DNA of 59,615 bases, the filler included. It is 9 parts of 9 records of this genome, joined end to end, with 100 filler letters (N's around TTAATTAATTAA, not from the genome) between each part and the next. Parts side by side here need not be neighbours in the genome. Positions count along the whole stretch, not along the records: positions 5,473 to 10,986 come from SRR31156797_55753; 8 more parts are not named here. One strand, given 5' to 3'. The notes below the pieces were generated by a model that was not told where the DNA came from, did not search any database, and saw only the letters and a list, made by a program, of their open reading frames with translations. A program made the translations under genes and the position numbers. Positions 5,473 to 53,743 of this stretch are shown here, one piece after another. Every line of letters starts with the position of its first letter. Position 1 is the stretch's first letter.

Positions 5473-5505
5473 TGTGGATGCGCAACGGTTACTTTTGTTA
5501 GCATT
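5473..5505 (-). repeat. Partial attC-like site (inverse core of cassette 5), cut by contig end
   Basis: GTTAGCATT (5497-5505) is the exact reverse complement of AATGCTAAC (6216-6224). Confidence 0.65.
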
Positions 5506-5514
5506 TCGGTTTTT

Positions 5515-6192
5515 TTAATCTTTTTTCTTAAGGTCTTTTGTTTTAATTATTGATACAAAATGACTGAAGGAATTTCCAGCAAGATAGGTTATTCTCTGAG
5601 TAGCTGCCAAATGCAGTGATACTGCGAAAAATATTAAGATTGTTAGCGAGAAGTAAAATAAAATACTACTGGAAGTAATCATGGTCTTTAGAATAGAATT
5701 AGAAAACAAACTAAATGAACTAAGTATTAAGAGTAGTAACCAATATACAACTATCAAAAAAGATGTTCTCGACATTCTATAAAGCCTCATTTGATAATTA
5801 TAATCATGATTATATGATTCGCTTTGTTGCACCACATAATTATGCATTAAGTAATTCAGTTTTTTTAAATCATCTGTATTATCATTTATTTCTATTCCAA
5901 ATGTATTTTCAATTTCTTCTTTGGCTAATAAAATATAAGGTCTGTTTTTTATTAGATATCTTTTCCTAATTTTCTTTTCTATAGCCCAGAAAAAATATAT
6001 AGATGCAATGGAATTAAAGCTTAATCCACATAAATAAGCTCCACTAACAATAACTAATCCAAAAAATAAATTATTCTTGATAGCAAACATTTGAGTTATT
6101 ATTGTTTCGGGAATTAAGAATAAAAATGAAGCTTCAATTAAAACTCCAGCTAGAATGAATTCTATTAAATTTGAAGGATATTCAATTTTCAT
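5515..6192 (-). CDS. Cassette 5: hypothetical membrane protein (about 4 TM, 225 aa)
   Basis: Intact ORF with N- and C-terminal hydrophobic helix pairs; fills the cassette. Confidence 0.75.
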   Translation of the reverse strand: MKIEYPSNLIEFILAGVLIEASFLFLIPETIITQMFAIKNNLFFGLVIVSGAYLCGLSFNSIASIYFFWAIEKKIRKRYLIKNRPYILLAKEEIENTFGIEINDNTDDLKKLNYLMHNYVVQQSESYNHDYNYQMRLYRMSRTSFLIVVYWLLLLILSSFSLFSNSILKTMITSSSILFYFSLTILIFFAVSLHLAATQRITYLAGNSFSHFVSIIKTKDLKKKD

Positions 6193-6217
6193 AACATATT
6201 GTCTTTTTTTAACTGAA

Positions 6218-6346
6218 TGCTAACGTTCTTGCTAAAAATTGAGGGCGATATACAACTACCGCCTTATTAAAACCGCTAGCGTTTATTGTTTTTATTAACT
6301 TATCTAATTGAGCATCACCGTCCATTGATTTTAATTTTTGTTAGGC
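6218..6346 (-). repeat. attC-like site (129 bp)
   Basis: Minus strand GCCTAAC...GTTAGCA with imperfect arms TTAAAATCAATGGACGGTGAT / ATCGCCCTCAATTTTTAG. Confidence 0.7.
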
Positions 6347-6360
6347 AATCGTTTTGTTTA

Positions 6361-6657
6361 TTACAGCATGGAAATAAATTTTAATATAACACCTGCCATT
6401 AAAATTAGTAAGTCTATTACTATTCCTACTTTGATTTTGAATTTAAGCCTTATTACTCCAACTCCAATTAAAATACCAATAGCTCCAAGGATTGAATTAA
6501 ATAGTAAAACCCAATCTGGATACATTGAATAAAAGTAAATTCCAGTAGAATGATATAAGTATAACAAATATAAATTATCCCAAATCCAGTAAAGATTAAT
6601 TCCAATTATTACTAATCCTGTTAGGAGATTCCATTTTAATTGAATTACCTTATTCAT
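6361..6657 (-). CDS. Cassette 4, ORF b: small membrane protein (98 aa)
   Basis: Three hydrophobic segments; overlaps the upstream ORF by 8 nt. Confidence 0.65.
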   Translation of the reverse strand: MNKVIQLKWNLLTGLVIIGINLYWIWDNLYLLYLYHSTGIYFYSMYPDWVLLFNSILGAIGILIGVGVIRLKFKIKVGIVIDLLILMAGVILKFISML

Positions 6658-6961
6658 TCTTTAGTTTTTTATTTATCTCTGCTTCCAAATTCTTCCAAAT
6701 TTCTAAAATTATATTTGTCTTGGAATTGGCGATGCTTATCAGCTTTTCCCCATAATTCGAAAGAAAAATTTTTTTATTTTTCTCTAAAACAATTCCTTTT
6801 TGTATCAACCATTTTATTGATTCTTCTAATTCTCTATTCGTCGGAACGGCATGATTTATTCCGTCTGCAATTTCAGATATTTCTTTTCTCGCTGCTGGGG
6901 ATTTTTGAGAGGCAAAAGCTATCGCCAAAAGAATCCATGATATGGTCGTTGTTTTTTTCAT
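6650..6961 (-). CDS. Cassette 4, ORF a: hypothetical protein, possible winged helix (103 aa)
   Basis: ATG 16 nt after the GTTAGGC core; 'ELEESIKWLIQKGIV...IFLSNYG' resembles a wHTH helix and wing. Confidence 0.6.
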   Translation of the reverse strand: MKKTTTISWILLAIAFASQKSPAARKEISEIADGINHAVPTNRELEESIKWLIQKGIVLEKNKKIFLSNYGEKLISIANSKTNIILEIWKNLEAEINKKLKNE

Positions 6962-6970
6962 TTAAATGTT

Positions 6971-7026
6971 GCCTAACAGTAAATTGCATGCACCATAAGG
7001 GAGTTCGTGGTATTCCTTGGTTGCCA
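6971..7026 (-). repeat. Short atypical recombination-type site (56 bp)
   Basis: Minus strand TGGCAAC...GTTAGGC; weak hairpin; shares ATGCACYATAAG with the site at 10941. Confidence 0.55.
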
Positions 7027-7033
7027 GCAGTTA

Positions 7034-8077
7034 TTAATTAAGCTTTTTAATTTTTGCTTTTATTAATTCAAGATCCGTGTCTTTAAGTTCTAGTTTTATT
7101 TTCATATCCAATGAAATTGTGATGTCAGATTTTATGTCAAAATAATGATTGTTTTTATCAATACTTAAGCCAATTAATGTTATTTTTTCTCCAATTGGTA
7201 CATTTATATTTTCAATACTTTCACTTAGTGATATTATACTTTTATAATTTTGAAAAACACAAAAGTATTTCACATTTGATTTTTTATTTGAGGATATTTC
7301 AAGTGTAGTAATGTTTTCAAAATCTAGAAATTTGTCGAGGTTTATCCAATTTATTTTTAAAGAATTATACACTAATCCAATATCACTACTATATTCCAAA
7401 CCTGCCTCAGTATATATATCACCATAATATATAGTGTCAATTTGCTCTCCTGAAAAATAAGTAATGATCGAATCAATCTTTGTATAATTTCTAGTCCATA
7501 AAATTGAATCTAATGAAATCTTTCCAATCGGAATTTTAAAATTTCTATCATTGTTTATTTGAAAATAATCACTGATTGTCAGTCTATTATTTAGGAAAAC
7601 TCTATAATTTGCAGTTATTGTATCTGGAGTCCAGTTTATAGTATTTTCTAAAACTTGTCCATTAAAAATTTGATAATCTACATAATCGGTGTTTTCAATA
7701 AATTTTACGGAAATAGGCTTATTAATTCTTTCAATTTTTGTTGAGTTTCTAAATAACTCGATACAAATCATTCCTTTGGAGTCTAGAATCCTATCGTTTG
7801 AAGTTGTACTTAAGCCAGCAAAAATCATTTCTGATTTATTATAGTATTCTGCCAATTTTACTTTTATTGTATCAGTCGGATTTATATTTTTTACAATATC
7901 TTTTGGTAGATGAATTAATGTTCCCTTAATACCTGTCAATATTGTATCATTATTACCAATCATTTTAAATTCTTGTTCATTTTGATACCTCTGTGATTTA
8001 ATAAAATCGTCCGTAGTATATTCAACATTACATCCTATCAAAAGTCCTAAAATGCATACTATAAATGCTTGTTTCAT
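7034..8077 (-). CDS. Cassette 3: putative lipoprotein (347 aa)
   Basis: Lipobox-like signal 'MKQAFIVCILGLLIGC'; intact ORF filling the cassette. Confidence 0.75.
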   Translation of the reverse strand: MKQAFIVCILGLLIGCNVEYTTDDFIKSQRYQNEQEFKMIGNNDTILTGIKGTLIHLPKDIVKNINPTDTIKVKLAEYYNKSEMIFAGLSTTSNDRILDSKGMICIELFRNSTKIERINKPISVKFIENTDYVDYQIFNGQVLENTINWTPDTITANYRVFLNNRLTISDYFQINNDRNFKIPIGKISLDSILWTRNYTKIDSIITYFSGEQIDTIYYGDIYTEAGLEYSSDIGLVYNSLKINWINLDKFLDFENITTLEISSNKKSNVKYFCVFQNYKSIISLSESIENINVPIGEKITLIGLSIDKNNHYFDIKSDITISLDMKIKLELKDTDLELIKAKIKKLN

Positions 8078-8103
8078 ATTTTTTCAAGGTTAGTTTAAAT
8101 TAC

Positions 8104-8290
8104 TGGTAACGGCAGTCTGTCTAATAATTATTTTAAAGTCTCTGAGAATTGATTATTTTATAATTTCAAAAACTCTTGTTCAAATGCTTTAAAGTAACCT
8201 TCTACTTTTTAGACAGTCTGACGTTCAGTATAAATGGCTAGCCTTATGTTGCGCCCGCGGCAAGGCTATGACATTTATACATTGTTGTGC
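8104..8290 (-). repeat. attC-like site (75 bp once the MITE is removed)
   Basis: Minus strand GCACAAC-AAT-GTATAAATG..TAGCCTT-loop-AAGGCTA..CATTTATAC-TGAAC-[MITE]-GTTACCA. Confidence 0.75.
8113..8220. mobile_element. 108-bp MITE-like insertion
   Basis: TIRs CAGTCTGTCTAA / TTAGACAGTCTG (11/12, or 15/18 when extended); flanks ACGG and ACGT resemble a 4-bp target duplication. Confidence 0.7.
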
Positions 8291-8302
8291 TGTCGAGGTT
8301 TA

Positions 8303-8941
8303 TTATTTACTTAGCCTTTTTACTGTCAATACAAAACTATTTGCGAACTGAATGGCTCGAAAATGACACATAAACATTAACCCACCAAAAATCAAACAAA
8401 GAATCCAATTATCAACGGTCAAGCAGATAATTGTTCCCAAAAGTGTCGTAGTATATAATCCCTTAAACAAATCATTTAATGTATACCAATAATTTGCAGG
8501 TCCAAAGTTGTCCTTAATCTGTAATTGCGCACATGATTCCCAAAAGTGCTCGACACTATTCCATGTCTGATTAGTTTTATTCTCAAGTACTACAGAATTT
8601 ATAACCTTATTCTTATACATAAAGAAGTGAACCATTTTTCTAATAAACTCAACAATCCAATACTTTCTAATATTCCATTTTGTCAGTTTGGAGTGAAACG
8701 CTTTATACGTTTTCAGAGATAGGAAACCTAATCCGTGAAGTAGGTGTCCCAGTATATAAATTAATGGAATAACTATGATTACTAGAAGTCCTGCAAACTC
8801 CTTTATAAAAGTATGTTTCGAAAAGAAATCTTCAGTGATATTCAAAATAGATTCGAAGAAAATTAAATCCAAGGCTAATAATAGAAAAGCTCCTGAAGAG
8901 AAATAAACTAGAAAATCTCGAAGTGTAAAATTTGTTGTCAT
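8303..8941 (-). CDS. Cassette 2: hypothetical membrane protein (about 4 TM, 212 aa)
   Basis: Intact ORF; 2 N-terminal and 2 C-terminal hydrophobic helices around a soluble middle. Confidence 0.75.
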   Translation of the reverse strand: MTTNFTLRDFLVYFSSGAFLLLALDLIFFESILNITEDFFSKHTFIKEFAGLLVIIVIPLIYILGHLLHGLGFLSLKTYKAFHSKLTKWNIRKYWIVEFIRKMVHFFMYKNKVINSVVLENKTNQTWNSVEHFWESCAQLQIKDNFGPANYWYTLNDLFKGLYTTTLLGTIICLTVDNWILCLIFGGLMFMCHFRAIQFANSFVLTVKRLSK

Positions 8942-8999
8942 TAGCTATGATTGTTATTGTTCTGTTAATTATGAATTTAGAAGTCGTTCCCTCCATGCA

Positions 9000-9080
9000 G
9001 CACAACGGCTAGGCTATGAAGCGTACTTTTTTGTGTTGCGCCTGCGGCAAAAAAGTATGATTTATGAGCCATTGTTACCA
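9000..9080 (-). repeat. attC-like site (81 bp)
   Basis: Minus strand TGGTAAC-AAT-GGCTCATAAATCATACTTTTTTG-loop-CAAAAAAGTACGCTTCATAGCC-TAGCC-GTTGTGC; loop 16/17 identical to 8247-8263. Confidence 0.8.
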
Positions 9081-9094
9081 TTCGTTATTTCTAT

Positions 9095-10903
9095 TTAAGG
9101 TTTACAAATTATATAAGTCTCTGCACTAACCTCATTACAACTTGAAATAAGAGATGAGATAAACCATAAAATCTGTATGACCTCATTACGCTCTTTGAAT
9201 GTCTCATTATTTTTCAGTTTTTGAAGCCTATCTGTCAATTCTAATTTTGATATGAAATTAATAACTAGGTATACTTTCTTTGTTAAATTAGGCTGTGATT
9301 TTAGATTTTTAAAATAGTCTATCGCATCATCAGAATTACTTCCTTTCCTTATCCTATGAATTTGTGTCGTTGTTTTATCTAATACATAATCTCTATCCCA
9401 AAACTTTTGTTTCATTTCCCATTGGTTATCTGCTGGACTTAAATTTCCGAGATTCTTTTGAGCTTGCCCAACAATGTCTTGAAATGCTGATGCTGAAAAT
9501 TTAGATTCCTTGTACTTGGAATGGAAAAATGAAATGTTATTTTCGTCAAGACCTATATGGTCAGCCCATTCTTTCCCCAAATCATCGCAAATAAAGAACT
9601 TAAAACTTGAAAGGTATTTATCTTCAACGAACCCGAATATTGAACCTGCATTGAATTCTGTTGAAGTCGGAAGAACACTTCCTTTTTCACTAGAAACACT
9701 ACTTAAATCTGTGCTAGGCTTGAAAACGCTCAAAAATGCATCCGTATTTGCCAGCAATCTACTATCCTTAAATAATTTACGATGGCTGTAAACAAGTTCA
9801 ACCCTGTCAAAATTAATTATGTAACTACTGGTTCTATTAAAGAAATCAATAATAGACAATTCTGTTCCATCTGTAAGTTTTATCATTAATTTTTTCAACT
9901 TACTTGAACGTAGAGTTATCGATTTTGGATTTATTGACAGAGACAAATCATTAACAAAAGGATTAAGTATTTTAAAGTAAGAGTTACCTTCATTGCTAAC
10001 TAATTCTTTCACCTCCATAAGCCTAGAGAAATTATTTAGAATTGAGATAACATCAATTTCTTTTTCATACTCTTCAAATATAAGTTTTGTAGATTCAATT
10101 CTATTTGCCTCATATTCATCATATAATTTCGTCAATAAAAGCAAAATAGCTATAGGTTTTAATGAGCTATTTTCTTTCTCAAAATCTAGAGGTGTAGCAA
10201 AAGATGTAAGGAAATTTTCAGATGCTTTAAAGTTCTCAATTTTATCAATGATATTGTCAGACCACGATATAAAGAAATCAATATTACTTTTCTTTCCAAA
10301 TTTATTAATTCTTGATGAGCCCAATGAAAGAGAAACTTTATCATCGTCGTTACTAACTCTTAAATTGCTTGGAATATATGTTTGTAAACCTAACGAAGAG
10401 ATACTCTCTTTTAAATCAACAGCTTCAACACTTTTAGAACGAACAGCATTATCTGAAATATTCATATTGTTCATTGATATTTTTTCAAATGCAGTATCTT
10501 CATCAATAAATAATGAGGAAATTGTATTATAGTCTAAAGGGAAAATCCTTTTACTTAATTCCTTTGTTCCAGATATATTTCTTTTTGATACAGCTATATA
10601 GTTTTCAAAATCTACAATTACAATATAAGCGAGTTTAACTTCTTCCCAATCTTTCAATTCTTCATCTATAAAACTTGGTTTTTTAGGATATTTAAACACA
10701 CAAATAGAATATTCTACATCCTTATTGTTCACTTTCGTTTTACTTTTTATTACTCTTAATAAGTAATTCCCCATTTTGTCAGAAGAAGCTTCTTTAAATG
10801 TTGTATCGATTAATTTTTTAGATAAAATCCCCTTTTTTATCTTTTTGTAGAAATAAGCATTTTCATTTAAAGTAAGATTATTTATAAGTTCATTTTCTGT
10901 CAT
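9095..10903 (-). CDS. Cassette 1: 602-aa protein with a putative C-terminal PD-(D/E)xK-like nuclease domain
   Basis: Intact ORF; C-terminal 'CDDLGKEWADHI...FFHSK...SASAFQDIVGQAQKN' resembles a restriction-endonuclease-fold active site (function inferred). Confidence 0.65.
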   Translation of the reverse strand: MTENELINNLTLNENAYFYKKIKKGILSKKLIDTTFKEASSDKMGNYLLRVIKSKTKVNNKDVEYSICVFKYPKKPSFIDEELKDWEEVKLAYIVIVDFENYIAVSKRNISGTKELSKRIFPLDYNTISSLFIDEDTAFEKISMNNMNISDNAVRSKSVEAVDLKESISSLGLQTYIPSNLRVSNDDDKVSLSLGSSRINKFGKKSNIDFFISWSDNIIDKIENFKASENFLTSFATPLDFEKENSSLKPIAILLLLTKLYDEYEANRIESTKLIFEEYEKEIDVISILNNFSRLMEVKELVSNEGNSYFKILNPFVNDLSLSINPKSITLRSSKLKKLMIKLTDGTELSIIDFFNRTSSYIINFDRVELVYSHRKLFKDSRLLANTDAFLSVFKPSTDLSSVSSEKGSVLPTSTEFNAGSIFGFVEDKYLSSFKFFICDDLGKEWADHIGLDENNISFFHSKYKESKFSASAFQDIVGQAQKNLGNLSPADNQWEMKQKFWDRDYVLDKTTTQIHRIRKGSNSDDAIDYFKNLKSQPNLTKKVYLVINFISKLELTDRLQKLKNNETFKERNEVIQILWFISSLISSCNEVSAETYIICKP

Positions 10904-10923
10904 AGGGTTTGTTTTTTAATGAA

Positions 10924-10986
10924 TGGTAACTAGTTAGGAAATGCACTATAAGTGCACAATACATACCCTATAGGTCAGTATTGTGC
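10924..10986 (-). repeat. Array-proximal recombination-type site (attI-like or second attC class), cut by contig end
   Basis: Core GTTACCATTC is complementary to 9074-9083; followed by ATGCACTATAAG and a 9-bp inverted repeat GCACAATAC/GTATTGTGC around CCTATAGG. Confidence 0.5.
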
Positions 10987-48637: not shown

Positions 48638-49032
48638 NNNNNNNNNNNNNNNNNNNNNNNNNNNNNNNNNNNNNNNNNNNNTTAATTAATTAANNNNNNN
48701 NNNNNNNNNNNNNNNNNNNNNNNNNNNNNNNNNNNNNACACATAAAAGTGACTCTTTGTCAGGAAAAGTGTGTTATGTTTAATTGGATTTTTGATAAGTA
48801 TGATTTGTTTGTTTTATCATAATTTCTTATTTTAAAAATACCAAAACAAAATCCTATACATCAATAAAACCAGACAAAACAATTTAAAACCTTCAAACAT
48901 GACCTTAAAAAGACGATCCTTACCTGAATTCTTACCGCATTTAATAGCAAATCATTTATATCCACTATTCTTCATTATTCATTTAATCTGATTGACACAA
49001 CTATATAATCAGATCCAAAAACTTTATTTAAT

Positions 49033-49677
49033 ATGAGTGATTCATTAGAAAAAGAACTGGAACGAAATCGTATTCTGGTTCAGGGAGTAATGGGCAGCAG
49101 CGAAATAAAAGAACGTATTGCGCCTATTTATCCTGAAGAAAAACTGGCACAGGGAGTTGAATTGTATACAGCTGCCTGTAATGCATTTCAAACCCAGGTA
49201 ATAGAAGTAGGGGAGAGCAGAGCAACTACCCGGGCTTTTAATGACGAAAAAGACCGCATACATAACTTGTTAATAAAAATAAGAAAAACCTTAAGGTATT
49301 TCTATAAAAACAACCTTCAGCAGGAAGAGCTATTACAGTTTAATAAGGCTGTGCCAACCAATTACGCTGAGTGGGGAGATATGATTCGATTAATGGCAAA
49401 TGCCATTATTTCGCGCGAAGAGGTATTGACCAAACTTAATTTAGTAGGCATTACTTCCGGGGAGCTAGAATCGTTGAAAACCGATTTGGATGCTTTGGAT
49501 GAATTGCGTTTAACTGCCGTAAAAGAAGACGGAGAATCGCAAATAGCCACAAAAAACAAAGAAGCTTCCTTTAACGAGTTAAAAAGTTATTGTATTGACT
49601 TAAGAGAATGCCTGGACTTATTCTTTGAAGGAAGTGAACGTCAGGTGTTAGAAAAAGTAGGTATAACCGTAAAATAG
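49033..49677 (+). CDS. Hypothetical all-helical protein (214 aa)
   Basis: Intact ORF followed by a terminator. Confidence 0.7.
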   Translation: MSDSLEKELERNRILVQGVMGSSEIKERIAPIYPEEKLAQGVELYTAACNAFQTQVIEVGESRATTRAFNDEKDRIHNLLIKIRKTLRYFYKNNLQQEELLQFNKAVPTNYAEWGDMIRLMANAIISREEVLTKLNLVGITSGELESLKTDLDALDELRLTAVKEDGESQIATKNKEASFNELKSYCIDLRECLDLFFEGSERQVLEKVGITVK

Positions 49678-49712
49678 TAAGCTATAGAATAGGGTATAAT
49701 GATATGCTATGT

Positions 49713-49746
49713 AAGGGAAGTGTTGAAAAATGCTTCCCTTTTTTTT
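49713..49746 (+). terminator. Rho-independent terminator
   Basis: AAGGGAAG...CTTCCCTT plus T-tract. Confidence 0.75.
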
Positions 49747-50096
49747 ACGAATTCTTTTTAGGTATTAAGTTGGTGAGGATCTGCTGGTGGATTATCATCC
49801 AATAAAACTATATGGCACCGTCTTACGGCTATTTGCCGATACAAAATTTTCTAAATGGTGAAAATGAGGGTGTTGTATGATTTTTGTTAAAAAAATACAG
49901 TAAAGAATATATTCCTCTCAACTGTTGTGAAAGTGCTGTATTTATTTGGCTTTCCAACTGTTTTTATAGTATTTAAAGAACTTTTAGGTTTTTCAATAAA
50001 ATAGTGTCTTTACTACTCAAATATCGCAAAAGTAATAGACTATTTTTTTAGTATATCAGGTTAACCTATGGTAAGTAGCATTTTATTAAAAAATAG

Positions 50097-50104
50097 TATC
50101 TTTG
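50097..50104 (+). promoter_or_regulatory. Bacteroidota-type -7 promoter element
   Basis: TATCTTTG matches TAnnTTTG, 18 nt upstream of ATG 50123. Confidence 0.5.
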
Positions 50105-50122
50105 TTTTTAAGATGATACATT

Positions 50123-50410
50123 ATGAATACTGAAGCAACTAAAATAAGACCTAATATTTCGAGAAGAGCATTCTGGGATATCGATTATAATACCATCGAT
50201 TGGGAAAATAATAGTCAGTATTTAATAATAAAGGTTATAGAAAGAGGTAAGCTGCAAGATCTTTTTGAGTTAATAAAGTACTATGGAAAAGAAAAGATTA
50301 AGAAGGAATTGTTAGGTGCTTCAAAACTACCACAAAGAACATTTGATTTCGCCAGAACTTATTTTGCAGCTAATAAAGAAGACTTTCAATGCTCCATTTC
50401 GAGACTATAA
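50123..50410 (+). CDS. DUF6922-like small protein (putative antitoxin partner)
   Basis: 'FWDID', 'IIKVIERG...D......YG'; overlaps the AbiEii-like gene. Confidence 0.7.
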   Translation: MNTEATKIRPNISRRAFWDIDYNTIDWENNSQYLIIKVIERGKLQDLFELIKYYGKEKIKKELLGASKLPQRTFDFARTYFAANKEDFQCSISRL

Positions 50411-51006
50411 TTCCGGAAACCAGATTTATATTAGAAGATTTAATGAGACGGGAAGAGTTAAGAAATTACCGTTTGGTAGGAGGAACCGCACTATCTCTTT
50501 ACAAAGGTCATCGTGTTAGTGATGATATTGACTTGTTTTTGGATCCTGTAAAAGAATTCGATAAACAACAAATAAAGAGGGTTCTAATATCATTGGCAGA
50601 TAGTTCTGGAGACATAGAAATTTCAGATATGACTTTTGGCTTTTCTTCATATCTGACCTATAATGTAAGTGGGGATGAACTACATATTATTAATGGCATT
50701 AGGTTAGCTTCTACTCGTGATATTTCTGCAATGAAGTTGAATGCCATTACAAGTCGCTCTGAGAAAAAGGACTTTATTGATATTAATGAATTATTATCAG
50801 AATACTCAATTAAGGATATGTTAGAGCACTACAAAAAGAAATACCCATACAATGATCCTAAAGATGTCATCTTCGCTTTTTCTGCAATAGATAAAGCAGA
50901 TAGTTCATATATGCCTCAAATGTTTTTAGAGTTGAGTTGGGAGCAGGTTAAAGAGAATATTAAACAACATTTTAGAAAGTATCTGGATCAGGAAGCAGAG
51001 TTGTAA
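50389..51006 (+). CDS. AbiEii/AbiGii-family nucleotidyltransferase toxin
   Basis: 'LVGGTAL', 'HRVSDDIDLF', 'MKLNAI', 'KDFIDI'. Confidence 0.85.
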   Translation: MLHFETIIPETRFILEDLMRREELRNYRLVGGTALSLYKGHRVSDDIDLFLDPVKEFDKQQIKRVLISLADSSGDIEISDMTFGFSSYLTYNVSGDELHIINGIRLASTRDISAMKLNAITSRSEKKDFIDINELLSEYSIKDMLEHYKKKYPYNDPKDVIFAFSAIDKADSSYMPQMFLELSWEQVKENIKQHFRKYLDQEAEL

Positions 51007-51464
51007 AAAGAAATTGTTTGAAAATATTCCTCGAAATAAAACTTATTATACAGAATTAATATAAAGATGCAATCTTTACAAACTAAGCATCATGTAAATC
51101 CATAACTCGTTGTCGTCGTACGACTACTTTCCGATACAGAAAGTAATATATACTGATAATCAGGAATATAATAAAATGTGATACAAATGTGATACAAATG
51201 GGTCGCAAACAAACACAAACAAACGCAAAGCAAATCTAATGTTTAAGATGACATTTTAGGAAATATTTTCAAAACTTTCCATCTAACACTTCAACCTAAT
51301 TTTATTTCATATACCCTTCCGATACTTTCAGGTCTTCTAATATTTCAATCTTTCCGATTTTAATTGGTAAGGCAGATACCATTTTACCTAATAAGTGCTA
51401 ATTTTAGCCTTTTTATAGTTTAAAATATTACTTAAATACTATATCGGGTTGATATACAATATAT

Positions 51465-53027
51465 ATGACAATTAACAAACTAACATTAGATACATTAGAA
51501 TCTTGGCTGTGGGATTCTGCAAATATTCTTCGTGGTTCAATTGATTCATCAGATTTTAAGAACTACATCTTCGGGCTACTTTTCTTAAAACGTTCCAATG
51601 ATGTTTTTGAAGAAGAAGTAGAAAACAAAATGGAAGCTGAAAAGATTAGTCGTGAAGATGCGGAAGATGAAAGCTTCTTTCAACTACCTGAAGAAGCTAG
51701 ATGGAATAACATCACCAAGATTACTGAAAATATTGGTATCGCTTTAGATAAAGCATTTGCATCAATTGAACGTGAAAATACCAATCTTGAAGGTGTAATG
51801 ACTGCAACCAAGTTCGGTGATAAAGAAAAGCTTTCGGATGATGTATTACAGCGTTTACTAAGACACTTTAATCAACATTCATTGCGTAATGACCATCTTG
51901 AAAGTCAGGACTTATTGGGTGACGCATACGAATACTTAATTAAGCAATTTGCCGATGATGCAGGGAAAAAGGGTGGCGAATTTTATACACCATCGGGGGT
52001 GGTAAAGCTAATTGTAAACTTAATTAAACCACAACCAAGGCAAAAGGTATATGACCCGACTTGTGGTAGTGGGGGTATGTTGATTCAGGCATCTAAGTAT
52101 GTTTCAGAATTACCCGATGGGAAAGTTAATAATAACATCAACCTTTCTATTTACGGTCAAGAAAAGAATCTTGGAACATGGGCAATCGGTAAATTGAATA
52201 TGTTACTTCATAATTTTACTGATGCTGATTTACGTAAAGGTGATACATTGGTACAACCAAAGCATCTTGATGATAACAATGAATTGATGTTGTTTGATAG
52301 ATGCCTTAGTAATCCACCATTTTCCATCAGTGAATGGTGGGGGCCTGCTGAAGCTAATATTGAAACCAAGCTTGATAAGAACGGTAAAGAAAAGAAAGTA
52401 ACACCGAATTACGCTAAGGAAGTAACAGACCCATATGGTCGTTTACAATATGGAATACCACCACGTGGTTATGCAGACTTAGCATTTCTTCAACACCTTA
52501 TTGCAGTGCTAAAGCAAGATGGTAAAGCAGGTGTAGTTCTTCCACATGGTACATTATTCCGTGGTAGTAGTGAAGGTAAGATTCGCCAAGGTTTATTAGA
52601 AGCCGATTTAGTTGAAGGTATTGTTGGTCTGCCTAGTGCCTTGTTTTATAACACAGGTATTCCTGCTTCCATATGGATTATCAATAAAAACAAAACAGAA
52701 GCACAGAAAAACAAGGTTGTTATTATTGATGCATCAGGTGATTATAAGGAAGGTAAAAATCAAAACCAACTTCTTCAGGAACACATCGACAAGATTGTAA
52801 AGGCTTATGATGGATACACCGATGTAGACAAATATATGCGCATTGTTGATGTAGCGGAAATAGCTGAAAATGATTACAACCTTAATATTTCACGTTACAT
52901 TGATACATCTGAACCTGAACCCGAAGTGGATTTAGCACAAGTGAAAACTAACATTGCTAAACTGGAAGAAAAAGAAGCTGAAATTGATGCTAAGTTAGCT
53001 GAATACTTAAAGGAACTTGGGGTATGA
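51465..53027 (+). CDS. hsdM: Type I restriction-modification methyltransferase subunit M
   Basis: 'LW..A.ILRG', 'GEFYTP', 'DPTCGSGG', 'NPPF', 'YNLNISRY'. Confidence 0.95.
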   Translation: MTINKLTLDTLESWLWDSANILRGSIDSSDFKNYIFGLLFLKRSNDVFEEEVENKMEAEKISREDAEDESFFQLPEEARWNNITKITENIGIALDKAFASIERENTNLEGVMTATKFGDKEKLSDDVLQRLLRHFNQHSLRNDHLESQDLLGDAYEYLIKQFADDAGKKGGEFYTPSGVVKLIVNLIKPQPRQKVYDPTCGSGGMLIQASKYVSELPDGKVNNNINLSIYGQEKNLGTWAIGKLNMLLHNFTDADLRKGDTLVQPKHLDDNNELMLFDRCLSNPPFSISEWWGPAEANIETKLDKNGKEKKVTPNYAKEVTDPYGRLQYGIPPRGYADLAFLQHLIAVLKQDGKAGVVLPHGTLFRGSSEGKIRQGLLEADLVEGIVGLPSALFYNTGIPASIWIINKNKTEAQKNKVVIIDASGDYKEGKNQNQLLQEHIDKIVKAYDGYTDVDKYMRIVDVAEIAENDYNLNISRYIDTSEPEPEVDLAQVKTNIAKLEEKEAEIDAKLAEYLKELGV

Positions 53028-53743
53028 AAGAAGGGTATAAAGATTCAGCTTTAGGTGAAATACCTGTGGAATGGGAAGTTAAGAAACAAGTTGAAGTTGC
53101 GTCCTTTTTTAATGGACGTGCTTATAAATTAAGTGAATGGGAAAAGGAAGGTACACCAGTAATTCGATTGCAAAATCTTACTGGTAATGGTAAAGATTTT
53201 TATTATTCAAATCTAAAATTACCTGACCACCAATATTGTCATAATGGCGACTTATTATATATGTGGTCTGCTACTTTTGGTCCCGTGTGGTGGAAAGGTG
53301 ATAAAGCAATATACCATTATCACATATGGAAAATTGAACATGATGAATCAAAGCTTGATGCTAATTTTCATTATTACCTTTTAGATGAAGTAACACGTAG
53401 AATGAAAAATGAATCACATGGTTCAACAATGCTACATGTTACTAAAGGTGGTATGGAAAAATTAATTATACAGCTTCCACCCCTTCCCGAACAACAAAAG
53501 ATAGCATCAATACTTTCAATAGCAGACCAAAAGATTGAACTAATTGACCAACAAATTGCAGAAACACTGGAATTAAAAAAAGGGTTGATGCAAAAGCTAT
53601 TGACCAAAGGTATTGGTCATACCAAGTTTAAAGATTCTGCATTGGGTGAAATACCTGAAAGTTGGGATGTTGAATCAGGTGAAAATATCACTAAGAAAAT
53701 CACGAAGGGCGCATCGCCCAATGTCATTAAGATAAGGATTTGT
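53024..53743 (+). CDS. hsdS: Type I restriction-modification specificity subunit S (incomplete)
   Basis: Repeated 'KDSALGEIP..W', 'LPPLPEQQKIASIL', 'KKGLMQKLLT'; ATGA overlap with hsdM. Confidence 0.92.

Follow-up and report, generated by a model that had tools for sequence, protein, structure and literature searches.

Two kinds of described system come close to the array of genes that we analyze here. The first, rAID-1 (recombinase-associated acquired interbacterial defense clusters), is known from gut Bacteroidales: a 5′ XerD-like recombinase gene is followed by co-directional low-GC genes with integron-like intergenic repeats, and this arrangement was reported in 226 of 423 Bacteroidales genomes (Ross et al. 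2019; bioRxiv 10.1101/471110). The definition in the available text of that paper asks for a recombinase at least 44% identical to the reference from B. fragilis NCTC 9343 and for at least two co-directional downstream genes with a GC content of at most 41%; the cargo is orphan immunity genes against interbacterial toxins. The second is the integron. The available text of the IntegronFinder 2.0 paper gives one complete integron in Bacteroidetes proper, in Salinibacter ruber. Acquisition of the I2 helix has been presented as the step that enabled single-strand cassette recombination (Escudero et al. 2020), and defense genes are also found as integron cargo (bioRxiv 10.1101/2024.07.02.601686). 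Our subject is a contig at positions 5473-10986 of a 59.6-kb window (the whole stretch of DNA that was analyzed), which carries five cassette-like units. This contig is probably the start of a cassette array of an integron-like system of Bacteroidota, one that was first noticed as rAID-1. The evidence comes from the anatomy of the sites and the logic of their boxes, the recurrence of units with exact boundaries, conserved families of sites, the link between arrays and a recombinase in related genomes, and the absence of the I2 segment from that recombinase.

The window joins nine unrelated contigs, with GC contents from 0.29 to 0.62, and eight TTAATTAATTAA linkers lie inside its runs of N. The array is one entire contig (5514 nt, GC 0.289), so both of its coordinates are true contig ends. 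The neighboring GC-rich DNA belongs to other contigs and is therefore irrelevant to the array. In the second AT-rich contig of the window (48738-53743, GC 0.336), there were no such sites and, by tblastn of the window, no recombinase.

Cassette units bounded by complementary boxes

The array has six open reading frames (ORFs) in five units. We number the cassettes from the right-hand end of the contig, and for each one we give the boxes that bound it.

9074-10930, minus strand: cassette 1, with a gene at 9095-10903 for a 602-aa protein (PADLOC phage-defense candidate PDC-S71); bounded by GTTACCATTC and its complement, 9074-9083 and 10921-10930, matching at 10 of 10 positions
8284-9006, minus strand: cassette 2, with a gene at 8303-8941 for an unknown, hydrophobic protein of 212 aa without a Pfam match; bounded by GTTGTGCTG and its complement, 8284-8292 and 8998-9006, 9 of 9
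7020-8110, minus strand: cassette 3, with a gene at 7034-8077 for an unknown protein of 347 aa whose N-terminus resembles a lipoprotein signal; boxes GTTGCCAG, 7020-7027 against 8103-8110, 7 of 8
6340-6977, minus strand: cassette 4, with two overlapping genes at 6650-6961 (103 aa) and 6361-6657 (98 aa, hydrophobic); boxes GTTAGGCAA, 6340-6348 and 6969-6977, 9 of 9
5497-6224, minus strand: cassette 5, with a gene at 5515-6192 for an unknown, hydrophobic protein of 225 aa; boxes GTTAGCATT, 5497-5505 and 6216-6224, 9 of 9

An initial annotation of this DNA, made from the sequence alone, had described six minus-strand ORFs in five units and an inverted pair of boxes around each unit. The ORF coordinates agree with this, and all five pairs are where it placed them, four of them exact and one matching at 7 of 8. 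It was also right that the ATG codons lie 16-65 nt past the G of GTT. It had put the stop codons about 7-13 nt before the inverse core; as measured, they end 6-12 nt ahead of the inverse box.

For four of the five units, the two flanking intergenic stretches hold an exact GTT-led 9-mer and its reverse complement, and the fifth unit matches at 7 of 8. Among 20,000 shuffles of the intergenic stretches that preserved composition, 19,866 gave no such unit, 134 gave one, and none gave two or more. Conversely, none of the six junctions contains a matching pair of boxes. Boxes that match thus lie on either side of a gene, not of a junction, as the initial annotation had noticed. A naive count over the whole contig is less clear: it gives eight GTT-led 9-mer pairs at distances of 150-4000 nt, four of which are AT-rich chance pairs within genes, and a wrong-order control gives two. 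Because such counts are noisy in AT-rich DNA, it is the position of the boxes that carries the signal, and for the comparison across loci we replaced naive pair counts with position-aware tests.

The cargo is accessory: one phage-defense candidate and five small unknown proteins, which are mostly membrane or secreted proteins. The 602-aa protein is a full-length match to PDC-S71, a candidate defense family in PADLOC (E = 6.7e-220). None of the six ORFs has a match in Pfam at E = 0.1, NCBIfam also gave no usable match, and a search of the contig against Rfam gave no matches at E up to 1. The atlas neighbors of the cassette 3 protein are unnamed Bacteroidota clusters, and the sole matches of the cassette 4 genes are weak ones to winged-helix proteins (E = 0.004-0.008). 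With six co-directional ORFs and a GC content of 0.289, the contig falls within the gene rule for rAID-1. It differs from rAID-1 in its origin, which is a marine family instead of the gut, and in its cargo of one phage-defense candidate plus unknowns; profile searches of the six ORFs recognized no immunity gene of the type VI secretion system.

The 602-aa protein also indicates the host. Ancylomarina euxinus encodes a hypothetical protein with 99% identity to it (98% identity at the DNA level), and the next relatives carry the names Labilibaculum, Prolixibacter, Algoriphagus, Lutibacter, and Chryseobacterium. Judging from these matches, the host is close to Ancylomarina/Marinifilum in the Bacteroidota; it is not proteobacterial, and the initial annotation's guess of a Bacteroidota-like source was correct. 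We made the comparisons through A. euxinus strain M1P (G001) and its relatives, using 97 genomes of its family. (G, L, and X numbers refer to genomes, loci, and public sequencing runs, respectively.)

Two of the units recur elsewhere with the same GTT boundaries, which bears out the initial annotation on this point: the likeness ends at the GTT/AAC boxes. Positions 9072-10930 of the window match G001:C48:407-2265 at 98% identity, in an M1P contig of 2389 nt; the alignment runs from GTTACCATTC to GAATGGTAAC, and both flanks are unrelated. The PDC-S71 unit is also present in contigs from X2 and X3 at 95-99% identity, and the likeness breaks at 9075-9077 and at 10931. Cassette 2, from box to box (8284-9006), matches G212:C1:1738977-1739710 at 88% identity, again with unlike flanks; the boxes of the G212 copy are partly decayed. 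As for further cassettes common to the loci compared, we found two short partial matches only, which are too few to test if hairpin bodies and genes travel together. We disregarded an apparent joint of 5884 to 7354 in X1; with just 21 letters on one of its sides, it probably reflects an artifact of repeats. Runs X4-X6 contain 6-8% of the words, and our comparisons leave them aside.

Hairpin sites between the cassettes

The stretches between the cassettes contain the following sites, which are given without a strand except where noted.

8998-9083: site B, an attC-like hairpin with about 75 nt between AAC and GTT
8103-8292: site C, a hairpin site of about 70 nt that is related to B and is interrupted by insertion D
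8111-8229: insertion D, an element of about 119 nt with 13-nt terminal inverted repeats (I7), inside site C right after AAC(GG)
6969-7027: site E, with boxes present and a 42-nt body
6216-6348: site F, 133 nt, a shorter relative of a repeat of about 190 nt in A. euxinus
5473-5505: site G, only that part of the following site which is nearest the gene (...TTAC TTTT GTTAGCATT, plus strand), cut by the contig end

On the plus (bottom) strand, site B reads AAC GGCTA, then a stem, a loop, and the returning stem with one extra G, and then ATT GTT. This leaves spacers of 5 against 3 nt, and the extra G is in the 3′ arm of the bottom strand. The predicted fold has an energy of -15.1 kcal/mol (z = -2.0), as compared to -12.7 kcal/mol for the top strand. 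The body of site B is 89-96% identical in five related genomes, where the boxes and the flanks are unrelated, and it is found in at least five contigs of X3, with the likeness confined to 9004-9077.

Site C shares a central motif with site B (8244-8263 and 9031-9050, direct repeat D9, 90% identity), and its core (8215-8295) folds at -13.7 kcal/mol (z = -2.3). Once insertion D is removed, it reads AAC GTTCA, stem, stem, ATT GTT. For the long junction 8103-8292, the initial annotation needs a correction: it is a single site of about 70 nt that has been split by the insertion. We considered if 8103-8232 might be a separate site or an empty cassette and rejected this, because the same element sits within a different site family in G218: a copy that is 88% identical occupies the same relative place in an F-type site (L037, G218:C15:41958-42080). 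Insertion D (fold z = -4.1) is thus found in two different site families and in two genomes, and it resembles a small mobile element for which these recombination sites are the target. IS1111-attC elements and group IIC-attC introns insert likewise in the sites of integrons.

Site F belongs to a widespread site family: many genomes of the A. euxinus family have sites with 75-88% identity to it, both in arrays and singly. Site G has a look-alike with a different neighbor in X1. The family of repeats of about 190 nt is prominent in A. euxinus, where the 22-nt end of the repeat occurs at least 65 times (with up to 3 mismatches), versus 0 for the reversed control. The same 22 nt were found in 34 of the 97 genomes, both as long arrays that fill short contigs and as small clusters at scattered places on the chromosomes. 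For instance, a 315-kb chromosomal contig of A. euxinus (G001:C47) has three-site clusters at 122.8-124.2 kb (L018) and 199-201 kb (L019). The neighbors of these clusters are housekeeping-type genes (radical SAM, pseudouridine synthase, and histidine kinase), and none of the 10 ORFs scanned beside the two clusters encodes a recombinase. Some cassette genes of A. euxinus contain tandem 21-nt (42-nt) repeats (L015:10493-10784 and L017:5396-5584), which suggests that repeat proteins are part of the cargo.

The consensus fold of 41 aligned copies of the ~190-nt family has an AAC/GTT R box, an unpaired spacer of 6 against 4 nt, an L stem of 16 bp, and a central hairpin. The anatomy of attC sites (AAC/GTT R boxes, an unpaired spacer, an L-box stem, and a variable loop) is therefore seen in site B, in site C, and in this family. 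The box logic of the window is seen in the relatives as well. In the arrays of four related genomes, we compared the bases after the GTT of one site with the bases before the AAC of the next, and 26 of 34 adjacent pairs were complementary at 6 or 7 of 7 positions. As controls, the two ends of one site were complementary in 1 of 43 cases, and random pairs in 70 of 2000. Most of the eight adjacent pairs that are not complementary span gaps of over 2 kb, where our search pattern missed variant sites.

Repeats of this kind could in principle spread by themselves, in the manner of repetitive extragenic palindromes or miniature inverted-repeat transposable elements, or they could be terminators; the gene order would then owe nothing to site-specific cassette recombination. 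Consistent with this, families of bodies are 80-96% conserved between unrelated flanks and are also present as single copies around the chromosomes, a small element (D) inserts into the bodies, and one of the neighbors of the recombinase that we describe below has a weak match to a transposase. We consider this explanation highly improbable. It does not account for complementary boxes that are specific to each cassette and surround each gene, or for units that different genomes have in common with exact box boundaries, or for the variable first unit that follows recombinase genes of 97-99% identity.

A tyrosine recombinase at the head of related arrays

The initial annotation had proposed that a tyrosine recombinase lies behind the array, and it had named a hairpin family associated with no recombinase as a result that would count against cassettes. 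In the relatives, a recombinase does accompany the site family and heads such arrays. In G152, G157, and G156, the recombinase gene directly precedes the array and has the same orientation as the cassettes. The first unit starts at a GTT 30-130 nt past the recombinase stop codon, and the inverse box of that unit matches. More broadly, among 26 recombinase loci (with about 1.5 kb of downstream sequence covered), 13 have a GTT-led 9-mer within 140 nt of the stop whose complement lies further downstream. On the other side of the recombinase gene, none of the 26 do, and the expectation from shuffles is 0.47. The recombinase genes of L075, L076, and L077 are 97-99% identical and have 41 nt in common after the stop codon, and then they diverge exactly at AAC. 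An attI-like insertion site with a variable first cassette is thus present in the relatives; the window has the matching hairpin and junction only.

This type of recombinase is encoded in 38 of the 97 family genomes and, across the order, in 77 of the 201 genomes sampled. Its genes frequently lie at contig ends. In NCBI, some of the proteins carry the name "site-specific tyrosine recombinase/integron integrase". In A. euxinus, the contig with the array recombinase is only 2.5 kb long, and beside the gene there is another, truncated copy of the recombinase N-terminus (105 aa, then a stop; L007, G001:C46:2119-2552), with the apparent end of an insertion sequence transposase gene nearby. At L031 (G239:C33), the ORF at 8257-8979, just upstream of the array recombinase, has a weak match to the IS200-like Y1 transposase family (PF01797, 23.7 bits, cutoff 23).

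Is the array recombinase an IntI? The initial annotation had suggested testing it for the I2 insertion of integron integrases, and this test came out negative. None of the eight TIGR02249 matches in A. euxinus exceeds the cutoff for IntI, and neither does any in the five other repeat-rich genomes (0/5). The best scorer in the repeat-rich genomes is a protein of 360-400 aa with a two-piece match that skips profile positions 181-239. Array recombinases score 193-204 bits against TIGR02249 (cutoff 265), 209-225 bits against NF040815 (XerA type, cutoff 220), and 176-193 bits against XerC/D. When aligned to the classical IntI of G128, they have gaps over the whole insertion, and the catalytic R, K, HxxR, H, and Y are kept. 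Because it lacks the I2 insertion, the array recombinase is not an IntI. The search was able to detect IntI, since it found classical IntI above the cutoff in 2 of 151 sampled genomes of the order (G128, 433 bits, and G025, 326 bits) and a broken copy in G079. G128 and G025 carry a classical IntI as well as the Xer-like array recombinase (L025, L026, L082, and L086), so the two systems can coexist.

These results bear on an alternative explanation, which is that the contig is an ordinary cluster of attC sites lacking an integrase (CALIN), left by a classical integron that decayed or was split, with its IntI elsewhere in the genome or unassembled. A classical IntI does exist in the order, the array contig has no recombinase, and draft assemblies are described as breaking at such repeats (IntegronFinder 2.0 paper, available text). 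Nevertheless, we consider a CALIN to be very improbable. None of the six repeat-rich genomes has an IntI above the cutoff, and only seven PF00589 genes are present in A. euxinus, none with an I2-type insertion (these include separate XerC/D-like genes of 306 and 296 aa). Also, it is a different recombinase that stands at the head of the arrays, with the variable junction past its stop codon, and G128 and G025 carry both enzymes.

By sequence, the nearest structures to the array recombinase are XerA (4a8e and 5hxy), followed by VchIntIA. In a structural model, the order is reversed, and the closest predicted fold is VchIntIA (2a3v, Foldseek E = 7e-16), then XerA. The array recombinase has an extra N-terminal domain of about 72 residues (model confidence, or pLDDT, of about 80-90). 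The best folds for this domain (residues 1-72) are the N-terminus of T4 UvsW (Z = 7.0 and 6.7) and XPB (Z = 5.2 and 5.0), of the HARP / UvsW-N / XPB-DRD branched-DNA-binding type; these scores are within the noise, since models lacking any true match commonly reach a best score of Z = 7-8. The HARP domain of SMARCAL1 matches with a Foldseek E value of only 0.42, and Foldseek gave no match for the domain at E = 0.001. The best sequence matches of the array recombinase are thus the XerA structures and NF040815, the latter at about its cutoff, and its catalytic domain has the same length as that of Xer recombinases (XerA and XerC/D), with no insertion. It differs from Xer proteins in its setting: it does not lie at a single dif-type site, and one copy heads a variable array.

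We then compared the whole system to those described before. As in rAID-1 (available text), a motif lies right past the recombinase stop codon and the system is widely distributed across the order. An enzyme whose exact sequence is assigned to Bacteroidales, including Bacteroides thetaiotaomicron, shares 47-49% identity with the recombinase of the Marinifilum type. A protein widespread in gut Bacteroidales is 49% identical to that type, which fits a single family. The system is best filed with rAID-1. The initial annotation had suspected an under-described system. In part, it was already described as rAID-1 in 2019; the available text of that paper (bioRxiv 10.1101/471110) contains no account of hairpin structure, box complementarity, the crossover point, or the missing I2 segment. 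In a limited literature search (supplements excluded), no paper connected integrons with Marinifilaceae, Ancylomarina, Labilibaculum, or Marinilabiliales, and none described a cassette recombinase that lacks I2.

The likeness to integrons extends to promoter-poor genes, to imperfect AAC...GTT hairpin sites with an unpaired spacer and a variable loop, to cassettes whose starting box is the complement of the box that opens their own site, to families of sites that are uniform within a host, and to an insertion site beside the recombinase gene. Vibrio cholerae, for example, has a sedentary chromosomal integron array with uniform repeats. On the other hand, the array recombinase has no I2 insertion, it carries about 90 additional amino acids as an N-terminal domain, and its gene is upstream of the cassettes in the same orientation. 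Other differences are that sites reach about 190 nt and that many small clusters are scattered over the chromosome. Also, two marks of an integron are missing: IntI is absent, and a gene and its site do not move as one. Overall, the box logic, the exact unit boundaries, the site families, and the recombinase-headed arrays support the initial annotation's reading of these units as integron-type cassettes.

At the right-hand end of the contig, beyond the boxes of cassette 1, we recognize two more features.

10947-10986, no strand assigned: end hairpin (fold -10 kcal/mol, z = -2.9)
10921-10946, minus strand: inner attI-like region (...CTAACTA, then GTTACCATTC), the boundary of the first cassette

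The end hairpin is 86-92% identical to a stretch that starts about 10-45 nt past the recombinase stop codon in L063, L065, and L069, and the layout of this end is that of L063: a hairpin, a second short palindrome, and a GTT junction. Toward the attI-like region, the likeness that the contig shares with A. euxinus and with metagenome contigs breaks off at 10930/10931. Because the right end matches the region that follows the recombinase, the contig appears to begin just after a recombinase gene. Thus PDC-S71 is probably cassette 1, the contig is probably the recombinase-proximal start of the array, and we infer that in the host organism the recombinase gene lies just beyond 10986. In A. euxinus, the junction after the stop codon is followed by a unit that starts with GTTATGTAC, and the complement of the GTTATGTAC box closes the site that precedes PDC-S71, so PDC-S71 may be cassette 2 there.

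Several observations weigh against these conclusions. The array contig itself contains no recombinase gene (tblastn over the whole window). A hairpin that is 98% identical to the end hairpin (G154:C58:3498-3537) has no recombinase in the remaining 1.4 kb of its contig, and at least three more copies of the end hairpin are present in run X1. The three further copies in X1, which is the likely source run, would also explain why the contig breaks at that point. Because of the G154 hairpin and the X1 copies, we regard the head-of-array position as probable and not certain. In relatives, the link between repeats and recombinase is imperfect: 10 of 34 repeat genomes have no recombinase at E = 1e-50, and 14 of 38 recombinase genomes lack this repeat family. 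The association (24 genomes with both and 49 with neither) is not independent evidence, since related genomes share labels. The site clusters near 123 kb and 200 kb of G001:C47 are far from any recombinase. Among the sites of the window, site E has no convincing hairpin (z = -0.33; 74 of 200 shuffles fold as well) and no relatives among the 97 family genomes. Taken by itself, site F does not fold better than its shuffles do (z = +1.3), and its top strand folds better than its bottom strand. With copies that are 80% alike, the ~190-nt family offers little covariation. Finally, we saw no excised circle or recombination event in the four X runs, which we compared as assembled contigs, and contigs cannot reveal circle junctions.

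In G154, the attI-type hairpin (L094, G154:C58:3380-3700) is beside the first gene, which encodes a 448-aa ATPase-like protein, with no recombinase beyond it. Either the recombinase was lost from this locus or the hairpin has an independent life.

Strand use, reassortment, and what the system implies

A cassette consists of one or two promoter-poor genes and runs from GTT plus about 6 cassette-specific bases to the complement of these bases plus AAC. Cassettes are parted by imperfect hairpin sites made up of AAC, an unpaired spacer, a long stem, a loop, the stem, a spacer, and GTT. In the mechanism that we propose, the Xer/IntI-like tyrosine recombinase, whose gene immediately precedes the array in the same orientation, would insert circular cassettes at a fixed point past its own stop codon. 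It would also excise or reshuffle cassettes at the AAC/GTT boxes of the folded sites. We infer that the recombinase carries out this recombination and that it works on single-stranded hairpins.

The conservation of the sites gives some indication of how they are used. Compensatory changes are seen in 6 of the 34 pairs of the ~190-nt fold (for example, one pair is CG in 20 copies and AU in 14), and five G-T pairs are conserved only on the strand antisense to the genes. The antisense strand folds better in 32 of 43 sites, by a mean of 1.7 kcal/mol. These features matter for an alternative in which the system is the same but the sites are used as double-stranded half-sites: an ordinary two-strand, Xer-like exchange would take place at either end of a site, without any folded single strand. 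The recombinase lacks the I2 helix that is credited with the move to single-strand recombination (Escudero et al. 2020), its closest sequence relatives are XerA-type enzymes, and crossovers on both sides of a site would account for the reassortment that is described next. Yet stems that are kept as pairs, with G-T pairs conserved on one strand only and better folding of that same strand, are hard to explain unless one strand folds. Also, the boxes beside AAC and GTT are specific to each cassette, so a double-stranded arm would have no fixed sequence for the enzyme to recognize. We therefore view double-stranded exchange as unlikely.

One feature is unusual: gene units and hairpin bodies seem to be combined independently of each other. 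The body downstream of PDC-S71 is of the B type in the window and in X3, a variant of about 185 nt in A. euxinus, and a third sequence in X2. Each time, the likeness of the PDC-S71 unit ends at the box, and the upstream neighbor differs too. Conversely, families of site bodies are conserved across genomes while the boxes and the neighbors vary. In classical integrons, crossover occurs only in the R′ box, so the downstream site moves with its gene. Here, the site does not stay with its upstream gene; the gene unit moves without it. Varied bodies on one unit, and conserved bodies with varied boxes, imply that gene units and bodies reassort separately, which requires crossovers on both sides of a site. 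These crossovers may reflect recombination on both strands, an exchange of double strands at one or the other half-site, or movement of the bodies themselves.

We tentatively suggest, as a possibility that is short of probable, that an I2-less tyrosine recombinase performs integron-type recombination of single-stranded hairpins, perhaps with its N-terminal domain reading the hairpin. Its strand choice would be weak, so that it cuts the AAC of either strand, and gene units and bodies would be two independent modules. Such a system would amount to a second, independent route to an integron, one that would be common in Bacteroidota and invisible to searches for IntI.

The window itself is one more instance of this system, and probably a piece from the head of an array. 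Integron surveys define the element by IntI and report that the Bacteroidetes are almost free of integrons, whereas here the full cassette logic is common beside a recombinase without I2. If genes and bodies are confirmed to reassort independently, the evolution of such arrays would follow a new rule. If the recombinase does the job, then standard tools miss pools of genes, such as phage-defense candidates, in marine and gut Bacteroidota, and cassette capture would be wider and mechanistically more varied than was thought.

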